Shown piece after piece: positions 22,738 through 23,061 of a stretch of 64,000 nucleotides of DNA. Positions within the stretch are counted from its first letter, which is position 1. Every line of letters starts with the position of its first letter. The notes under the pieces were generated by a model that searched no databases, was not told where the DNA came from, and saw only the letters and a list, made by a program, of their open reading frames with translations. Source of the stretch: a virus; IMG/VR virus record IMGVR_UViG_3300025121_000011, positions 261,474-325,473 of that record; one strand, 5' to 3'. The translations under genes and the position numbers were made by a program.

Positions 22738-22758
22738 GTCATTATATGAGTTAGTATT

Positions 22759-22863
22759 AATGGGGCCCGGCTTCTGTCGCCGGGAAGGACGAAGTATCCG
22801 AAGGATTTACGACCGAGAAAAGCTGTTGCTTCAATGGGGCCCGGCTTCTGTCGCCGGGAAGGA
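22759..22863 (+). repeat. two ~31-bp direct repeats (AATGGGGCCCGGCTTCTGTCGCCGGGAAGGA), each with a CCCGGC/GCCGGG hairpin, flanking a fragment of the 34-35 kb gene family
   Basis: copies at 22759-22789 and 22833-22863; the sequence between matches CCGAAGGATTTGAGACCGAGAAAAGCTGTTG of genes 34131-35691. Confidence 0.6.
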
Positions 22864-23061
22864 CTTGAAGAGAAGGGTCCGAAGGATTTGAGACCAGGAG
22901 CTTCAATAGAGGGCCTAAGTCTGCAAGGAACACATCTTTAATCTTATTATATCTCTGCTTCCATAGGTTAGCGAGTCCCTTCCGATAAGGAAGGGACTCT
23001 GTCTATCTTCAACAGGGGACTTCTGCTGCCGGGAAGAAATAAGAATAGGAGGTTGTAAGTT

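Follow-up and report, generated by a model that had tools for sequence, protein, structure and literature searches.

A 64,000-nt stretch (the window) of a huge phage genome of ~352 kb (IMG/VR record IMGVR_UViG_3300025121_000011) contains, at positions 22754–22931, a small CRISPR array, without cas genes or a recognisable leader; we hold this identification with high confidence. The overall order is R1–S1–R2–S2–R3(decayed)…R5(decayed), where R stands for repeat and S for spacer, and all elements are read from the minus strand. Judged from sequence and layout, R1 and R2 are genuine CRISPR repeats of the type I-G family, and the matches of the spacers indicate that all of them derive from one multigene family of the phage lineage, the Imm5-like genes. 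Taken as a whole, the best explanation would be a phage mini-array which supplies a guide RNA to a type I-G system of the host, for which the chances seem about even; the guide RNA and its use between phages, taken as a mechanism, are put forward more tentatively, at somewhat below even.

An exact direct repeat of 32 nt is present at 22759–22790 and 22833–22864, the two copies being 100% identical (repeat-family listing, D3). An earlier reading, made from the sequence only, had described two direct repeats of 31 bp, each a hairpin; the two copies and their hairpins stood, while the length had to be corrected to 32 nt for the exact repeat and to 37 nt for the full unit, which is GTCCTTCCCGGCGACAGAAGCCGGGCCCCATTGAAGC on the minus strand. 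R2 (22828–22864) is a complete repeat and can be divided into GTCCTT-CCCGGC-GACAGAA-GCCGGG-CCCC-ATTGAAGC. In R1 (22754–22790), on the trailer side, the hairpin and the following 4 nt are intact, and the final 8 nt are ATTAATAC in place of ATTGAAGC. In structure prediction both fold into a GC stem of 6 bp that carries a loop of 7 nt (−12.5 kcal/mol each); the stem CCCGGC...GCCGGG reads alike on both strands. A 29-nt core of the repeat had two matches in the window and none in 100 shuffles. With a covariance model built from genuine repeats, R1 scored 40.7 bits (E = 1e-7) and R2 56.3 bits, R2 itself being among the training sequences; these were the only significant matches in the window. The array consists of two 37-nt repeats, spacers of 37 and 35 nt and two further repeats, the third and fourth, which are decayed. 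The distance of 74 nt between R1 and R2 places them, by a published rule, with the mini-arrays and not with the solitary repeat units.

A scan of JGI metagenomes with the pattern GGGGCCCGGC-N7-GCCGGGAAGGAC returned three contigs, designated L010, L011 and L012. On L010, 30 repeats of 37 nt from the repeat family of the window form an array, with spacers of 34–37 nt; the periodicity of the window array (37 + 35–37 nt) is the same, and its spacers of 37 and 35 nt lie inside that range. On L012 two repeats of the family are located ~235 nt downstream of a C-terminal cas1 fragment and cas2. The best NCBIfam family for this Cas1 fragment of 95 aa was Cas4g/Cas1g of type I-G (117 bits, E = 8e-34), a score far below the full-length cut-off of 560 bits, since only a fragment is present. 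R2 and the L012 repeat are identical at 32 of 37 positions, with all five differences inside the loop.

In type I-G repeats, Csb2 cuts 4 nt 3' of the hairpin, which results in an 8-nt handle (bioRxiv 10.1101/2022.08.08.503147). The layout of the window repeats (6 nt, 6-bp stem, 7-nt loop, 4 nt and the 8-nt ATTGAAGC) corresponds to that of the type I-G arrays (formerly I-U) described there, which have repeats of 36–37 nt, a stable GC hairpin, 4 nt and an 8-nt 3' handle (ATTGAAxC). A further similarity may be the TTN-compatible flank of the S1 target (see below); the window array differs in residing in a phage, with no cas3, cas8g, cas7, csb2 or cas4-cas1 nearby. Among 185,579 species genomes the repeat pattern was matched only once, by chance, inside a Streptomyces coding region and without an array; the repeat family is therefore rare among sequenced genomes. 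The exact repeat was not found in IMG/VR. Rfam models produced weak matches to CRISPR-DR16 (minus strand, E = 0.28) and also to CRISPR-DR20 (E = 6.7). A glutamine riboswitch or Downstream-peptide motif, considered because of 'GGAAGGAC..GAAG', was rejected, as there was no Rfam match at gathering or E-value thresholds.

The pieces which match genes are of spacer size (31–38 nt) and bounded by repeats. Their counterparts are Imm5-like genes of the phage, in particular the three genes g1–g3 at 34131–35691. S1 (22791–22827, 37 nt) would specify the guide AACAGCUUUUCUCGGUCGUAAAUCCUUCGGAUACUUC, antisense to the Imm5-like coding strand. The sequence-only reading had noticed a bracketed sequence nearly identical to a segment of this gene family, and indeed 22791–22828 is identical to g3 at 35286–35323 in 37 of 38 positions, and to g1 and g2 in 30 of 32. 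The best protospacer for S1 in the own genome is in g3 (35286–35322, + strand, 36/37); weaker ones are at 34235–34271 (g1) and 34732–34768 (g2), and genes of two other contigs, P0010 and P0002, also match at 36/37. The sole mismatch to g3 is at position 22810, equivalent to guide position 18, and it was found in every one of the more than 20 Imm5-like copies examined; the difference is synonymous (CGA in the spacer, AGA in the genes). Guide positions 1–12 and the TTC flank were invariant across these copies. The flank GAA of the target corresponds to a protospacer-adjacent motif (PAM) of 5'-TTC, which is compatible with TTN, the motif that one I-G system is reported to use; for a second I-G system the PAM is TAT/TAC.

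S2 (22865–22899, 35 nt) corresponds, in diverged form, to this gene segment too (FEEKxPKDLRP). Its best match in the own genome is 30/35, with guide positions 3 and 4 among the five mismatches and TTT as flank; a paralogous copy is present at 17694–17728. The spacer-like segment S3 (22932–22966), whose right boundary is uncertain, is identical to g2 at 35013–35043, the EEHIFNLILSLLP segment, in 30 of 31 positions, and in 32 of 35 overall; for 22928–22962 compared with g2 at 35009–35043 the value is 34/35. The spacers of L010 and L012 had no match in the phage.

The locus is situated between two small genes, for proteins of 96 and 99 aa, which are paralogous as had been noted earlier (39% identity, E = 1e-18). 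Six independent assemblies are base-for-base identical over 22600–23100, so the block is not an assembly artefact, and in none of the six was a gene called between the flanking paralogs; the block is therefore not a coding gene. Two small open reading frames (ORFs), of 53 aa (22730–22891) and 35 aa (22834–22941), were rejected; they are without a ribosome-binding site and uncalled in all six assemblies. In shuffle tests the similarity of the repeats to the Imm5-like genes was no higher than for shuffled sequence, which shows that the repeats are not gene-derived. The description of the locus as a non-coding, repeat-flanked fragment of the gene family is thus borne out: the repeat family occurs elsewhere and no gene is annotated here. 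Its interpretation as a recombination scar had to be given up, since the repeats are unlike the genes and are CRISPR repeats of a cas-associated family. The alternative term "mini-cassette" loosely fits a repeat-spacer-repeat unit, and missed the CRISPR identity. As history, the block may have arisen through recombination in which it was captured from an array of the host.

Beyond S2, the array is in poor condition. R3 (22900–22931) kept the handle CTATTGAAGC and lost both hairpin arms; aligned to R2 it scores 22, a value that only 0.18% of random 45-nt windows attain (n = 5000), it has no stable fold, and the model search alone gave E = 2.3. R5 (23006–23040) kept the 5' arm, loop, CCCC and a TTGAAG handle, and lost the 3' arm; its score of 34 was reached by none of 5000 random windows. 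The 74 nt between R5 and R3 contain the S3-like piece and, on the + strand, a perfect 11-bp hairpin detected in a terminator scan (22973–22999), which is terminator-like. As a fourth repeat this hairpin was discarded, for it shows no similarity to R2 (random-window fraction 0.33). An apparent co-linearity of 22925–23023 with the C-terminus of the Imm5-like genes is accounted for by S3 and the decayed R5.

Further traces of repeats were found in the window, all on the minus strand where a strand was assigned. Locus B (17657–17865) is a decayed second array with half a repeat (TCGCCGGGAAGGAC), an S2-like spacer and two hairpin-less repeats of the R3 type; it has two additional Imm5-matching segments (17756–17792 and 17826–17861). 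Its repeat remnants have scores of 28 and 25, which none of 5000 random windows attained. The duplication of 22850–22925 at 17680–17752, reported in the sequence-only reading, was recovered as 22851–22924 with 90.5% identity. Next to it, the gene at 17364–17711 seems to overrun its original stop, when compared with its L011 homolog, and ends inside the repeat/spacer of locus B (...NKNIAGKDLKRRV*). Locus C (19165–19284) comprises a variant hairpin, GTCTTTCCCGG-N9-CCGGGAAAGAC (−21 kcal/mol), between two Imm5-matching segments. This hairpin (19215–19246; score 18, random-window fraction 0.0096) is possibly a repeat, a weak assignment. At the start of the window, positions 30–48 (CTCTTGCACCGGGAAGGA) resemble half a repeat with one hairpin arm and the end GAAGGAC; with a score of 22, as high as in 0.18% of random windows, this may represent one more repeat in decay, truncated by the edge of the window. 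Single decayed repeats such as those at 30–48 and 17657–17693 could qualify as solitary repeat units.

The block is bracketed by a direct repeat of ~40 nt on the + strand (22711–22750 and 23034–23078; D5/D6, 82%), which consists of a ribosome-binding site and ATGAGTCAYTAT. It includes the end of a small gene, and a stub ORF of six codons (MSHYMS*) is left at 22734. The two copies have the appearance of end pieces from a third gene, paralogous to those for the 96-aa and 99-aa proteins and since lost, which suggests that the array occupies the place of that gene.

Relatives of the repeat in other phages are of two kinds. L011, a contig of 5.4 kb from a distant relative of the phage, has the promoter cassette of the window (see below) and is syntenic with window positions 3.3–17.6 kb at ~45% protein identity (tblastx). 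It harbors a one-spacer array: a full repeat identical to that of L012, an unrelated spacer of 36 nt, and a second repeat which lacks only the first 6 nt. No target for this spacer was found, IMG/VR included. The 14.2-kb region of the window was considered as an ortholog of the L011 array and dropped, the similarity being not significant. Solitary repeats of the family are present on three related GC-rich IMG/VR phage contigs (L013, 761–797; L014, 2307–2343; L015, 10858–10894), each in an intergenic gap and in sense orientation to the flanking genes. These phages are unrelated to the window phage, and their solitary repeats are candidates for RNA anti-CRISPRs.

How the array might be used can be proposed as follows. 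In a host with a type I-G system the unit R2-S1-R1 would be transcribed from the minus strand, and the host Csb2 would cleave 4 nt past each hairpin, giving a CRISPR RNA (crRNA) of 74 nt. The predicted crRNA would begin at 22835 with the handle AUUGAAGC, continue with the 37-nt guide AACAGCUUUUCUCGGUCGUAAAUCCUUCGGAUACUUC and the 3' hairpin GUCCUUCCCGGCGACAGAAGCCGGGCCCC, and end after ...GCCGGGCCCC near 22762. It would be loaded into the Cascade-Cas3 of the host, whose target would be Imm5-like genes at their conserved ...KYPKDLRPRKAV... segment, next to a TTC PAM. The likeliest use would be to keep out related phage strains which co-infect the host, a role that has been proposed for other mini-arrays of viruses. 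That the unit has a function is suggested by the uneven decay, since only the one complete crRNA unit is perfect and its neighbours are ruined: R1 and R2 are identical in 32 of 32 positions and S1 is near-perfect, whereas R3 and R5 have no complete pair of hairpin arms and S2 has five mismatches. Under a divergence as in the S2-R3 duplicate (9.5%), the calculated probability of this identity between R1 and R2 would be ~0.04. Damage to R1 is confined to its 8-nt tail, which a last repeat can do without; in the truncated repeat of L011, similarly, the missing first 6 nt are dispensable, and spacer length is kept at 36–37 nt in both phages.

Several observations speak against such a function. Among 16 ORFs of the window which were checked with Pfam or PADLOC, including all of at least 284 aa, no cas gene was present. 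On the minus (crRNA) strand, neither a sigma-70-like promoter nor a leader was detected at the array; a lone TATAAT on that strand, at 22951–22946, is unsupported as a promoter. The array is antisense to all neighbouring genes and to all ~25 promoter cassettes, here and in L011. Known arrays with this repeat family stem from DNA of 68–72% GC, and the phage has 35–48% GC. A perfect target of S1 (GAAGTATCCGAAGGATTTACGACCGAGAAAAGCTGTT followed by GAA) was found neither in the more than 20 copies examined nor in IMG/VR; each copy in the own genome has one or more differences from S1, with position 18 always included, and their PAM and seed are intact. Guide backbones of type I systems leave every sixth position unpaired, 18 among them. 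With the only mismatch at an unpaired position and the TTC flank in place, a working S1 guide should therefore cut g3 of the carrier, too.

An unlikely explanation, which still deserves serious attention, is a decaying relic: part of a type I-G array, with spacers which the host had acquired against the multi-copy Imm5-like genes of this phage, would have been captured by recombination and would now drift without function. Leaderless phage mini-arrays may indeed gain spacers by recombination with host arrays (PMC6858448). S1 covers the most conserved DNA of the family, and its PAM and positions 1–12, identical in the copies examined, are what an effective host spacer would be expected to recognise. 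The missing leader, promoter and cas genes, the orientation against phage transcription, the plain decay of much of the locus and of loci B and C, and the position where a third small-gene paralog seems to be lost would fit as well. Drift does not readily explain why the sole unit capable of giving a crRNA is perfect, although by its position at the trailer end it is the oldest, or the low probability of the R1/R2 identity. Moreover, the independent relative L011 keeps a clean one-spacer array, and the Imm5-like remnants are only spacer-sized, while a crossover between spacer and protospacer would leave more.

Rather improbable, in our view, is that the transcribed repeat hairpins serve as a decoy in the manner of RNA anti-CRISPRs (Racrs), tying up the host Csb2 and Cas7 in dead-end complexes, so that the content of the spacers would be irrelevant. 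The problem of self-targeting would be removed, and the hairpin stem, reading alike on both strands, would form in a + strand transcript, too. Racrs are established in other CRISPR types, with candidates for almost all types (PMC10651486), and the solitary repeats in three unrelated GC-rich phages, sense to their flanking genes, are in favour of such a role for this family. A decoy, however, would need neither a repeat-spacer-repeat arrangement with a spacer of exactly the usual size (37 nt here, 36 nt in L011), which the published finder of solitary repeat units assigns to the mini-arrays, nor spacers which truly match genes; also, no promoter was found immediately upstream.

A + strand co-transcript could act as an antisense "anti-repeat" RNA, pairing with the repeats of host pre-crRNA and thereby blocking or destroying crRNAs. 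Silencing of host CRISPR by hybridisation of phage repeat-spacer RNAs was raised by Al-Shayeb 2020 (PMC7162821). The same antisense orientation is seen in the window loci and in L011, the promoter cassettes are all on the + strand, and the terminator-like hairpin at 22973–22999 follows on that strand. However, just two independent orientations are available, which is not significant, an experimentally supported precedent is lacking, and the gene-matching spacers and the conserved spacer length would be left unexplained; we consider this very unlikely.

Only a slight chance is given to the notion that the guides are aimed at the carrier itself. Host Cascade-Cas3 would then nick or degrade the tandem arrays of Imm5-like genes in the phage, and the cutting would provoke deletion, gene conversion and reshuffling, driving the extreme allelic diversity of the family. 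This would fit since all spacer-like pieces at three loci match the own family, since the mismatch of S1 is at an unpaired position only, beside the TTC flank, and since the same Imm5-like gene has different neighbours across assemblies.

Finally, an Imm5-like pseudogene with a tandem duplication, in which the hairpin repeats would be part of the gene remnant, as the earlier note on this DNA had implied, is hardly credible, for although the gene-matching pieces are all sense and roughly in gene order, and the family is decayed elsewhere (e.g., at 33830–33937, with a stop codon), the repeat-gene alignment scores are within the shuffle range, continuous co-linear homology is absent, the repeat agrees in 32 of 37 positions with a cas-associated CRISPR repeat, and the periodicity is that of a real array. 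A related model of a collapsed, tandem-duplicated gene, for which the repeat had been aligned by eye to 'FTGPGDFSEIFE' and 'AAKASSEEH', was rejected by the shuffle tests; the genuine arrays of L010 and L012 make it unnecessary.

Virus-borne arrays are already known; a spacer matching the carrier's own genes is unusual. The closest precedents for a phage mini-array with a guide RNA for the host system are heterotypic superinfection exclusion by virus-borne mini-arrays (PMC6858448) and the compact arrays, without cas genes, of huge phages (PMC7162821). The mini-arrays of the portogloboviruses SPV1 and SPV2 likewise have one or two spacers and cellular-type repeats, are intergenic and come without cas genes; these, and the leaderless prophage mini-arrays cited in the same paper, also resemble the window array in spacers that match the same virus lineage and in stand-alone or decayed repeats elsewhere. 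The SPV arrays, in contrast, are preceded by promoter-containing leaders and have spacers 100% identical to the rival virus, the own locus being mutated or deleted (PMC6858448), whereas in the window a leader was not detected and it is the carrier that has the best known match, with one mismatch at an unpaired position and the PAM present. Host types differ as well, with Sulfolobales types for SPV and a bacterial type I-G-like one here.

Short cas-less arrays were also described from metagenomic phages of >200 kb, without genes for adaptation or interference (PMC7162821). Their repeats are cellular-like, so that Cas proteins of the host would be needed, and some spacers target genes of other phages. 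The median number of repeats in these arrays, which standard array finders had detected, is six, while the window array has two intact ones, and its spacers all match one gene family of the own lineage. Racr solitary repeat units (PMC10651486), whose activity was shown for other subtypes, are similar in that a CRISPR repeat mimic is present in a phage without cas genes. Such a picture fits the decayed single repeats of the window and the solitary repeats of L013–L015; the core of the array differs by its repeat-spacer-repeat structure, a full-length gene-matching spacer and no promoter found directly upstream. Cracr arrays, which specify viral crRNA-like regulatory RNAs (bioRxiv 10.1101/2024.10.29.618823), are phage mini-arrays, too, whose RNAs are loaded into host Cas effectors; Cracr guides reportedly reprogram Cas proteins to silence cas or toxin genes, whereas S1 matches a phage gene nearly fully.

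Members of the Imm5-like family (33830–35691; L008 and L016–L020) are conserved in their N- and C-terminal parts and hypervariable in the middle, a stretch of Ala, Tyr, Asn, Asp and Val in which almost every codon ends with T. The genes g1–g3 belong to the Imm5_like family PF21805, g1 with 24.3 bits against a cut-off of 25, and many homologs carry PF21805. Dozens of alleles are present within the same samples, and arrays of the genes occupy at least three genome sites; one gene has differing neighbours between assemblies, and several contigs end in Imm5-like arrays. Slippage, gene conversion or a retroelement may be behind this diversity. Short pieces of the family are also at 14.2, 17.7, 19.2 and 33.8 kb, the last being the decayed copy with the stop codon. 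An isolated fragment of the C-terminus, 42–57 nt (FTGPGDFSEIFKMV), is located at 14232–14288, directly after the promoter cassette at 14115–14190; no repeat was detectable adjoining it. Downstream of it is a GC-rich, ORF-free stretch (14290–14470); a structured RNA in the region 14285–14480 was considered and rejected (no Rfam match, fold z = −0.58).

The genomic context is that of a phage: the genes are small and nearly all of them lie on the + strand, and there are tRNAs as well as genes for Hen1, a Pnkp-like protein, RNA ligase and DNA ligase. The 99-aa flanking protein was found in metagenomes of Rifle groundwater, on contigs of 305–352 kb, and in a GenBank record which binning had assigned to a metagenome-assembled genome of Bdellovibrionales. 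Among the Rifle samples with this phage are JGI 3300025087, 3300025073 and 3300009031. Searches for relatives, made with the flanking gene and with a conserved protein of the phage, yielded nothing, and megablast against GenBank phages gave no match. A promoter-like cassette, GGCGGCAAAAG...TCTAAAAANATAT...AGTAAC, was detected at ~25 sites between window positions 120 and 21137, all on the + strand (e.g., 14115–14190, 21078–21153) and often preceded by the hairpin TTGGCAy..TGCwTTAwGCA..rTGCCAA; together these sites appear to be promoters, specific to the phage, of an early-gene region. An RNA-repair set (RNA ligase, a protein with Hen1 N-terminal domain, a Pnkp-ligase-like protein), an ATP-dependent DNA ligase and a fused HisA-HisIE are encoded at 36725–42331, 47882–49057 and 62515–63762. 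Rfam tRNA matches which were not called by ARAGORN are at 56568–56681, 57231–57320, 19870–19940, 54295–54357 and 54636–54701. Two of these have inserts of 53 and 26 nt in the anticodon region; because of such long inserts they may be intron-containing or degenerate phage tRNAs.

With this array, a case from the type I-G family, in a groundwater phage of ~350 kb, is added to the few viruses with cas-less mini-arrays. Two intact repeats are probably too few for the array to be picked up by standard array finders. The repeat sequence should provide a handle for tracing the host of the phage, which would possess a type I-G locus with the same repeat. A puzzle is posed by the spacers, which all appear to come from one hypervariable, immunity-like family of the own lineage, with the intact spacer being one that should recognise its carrier. 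Its resolution would distinguish between strain-level warfare among phages, anti-CRISPR decoying and self-directed recombination.

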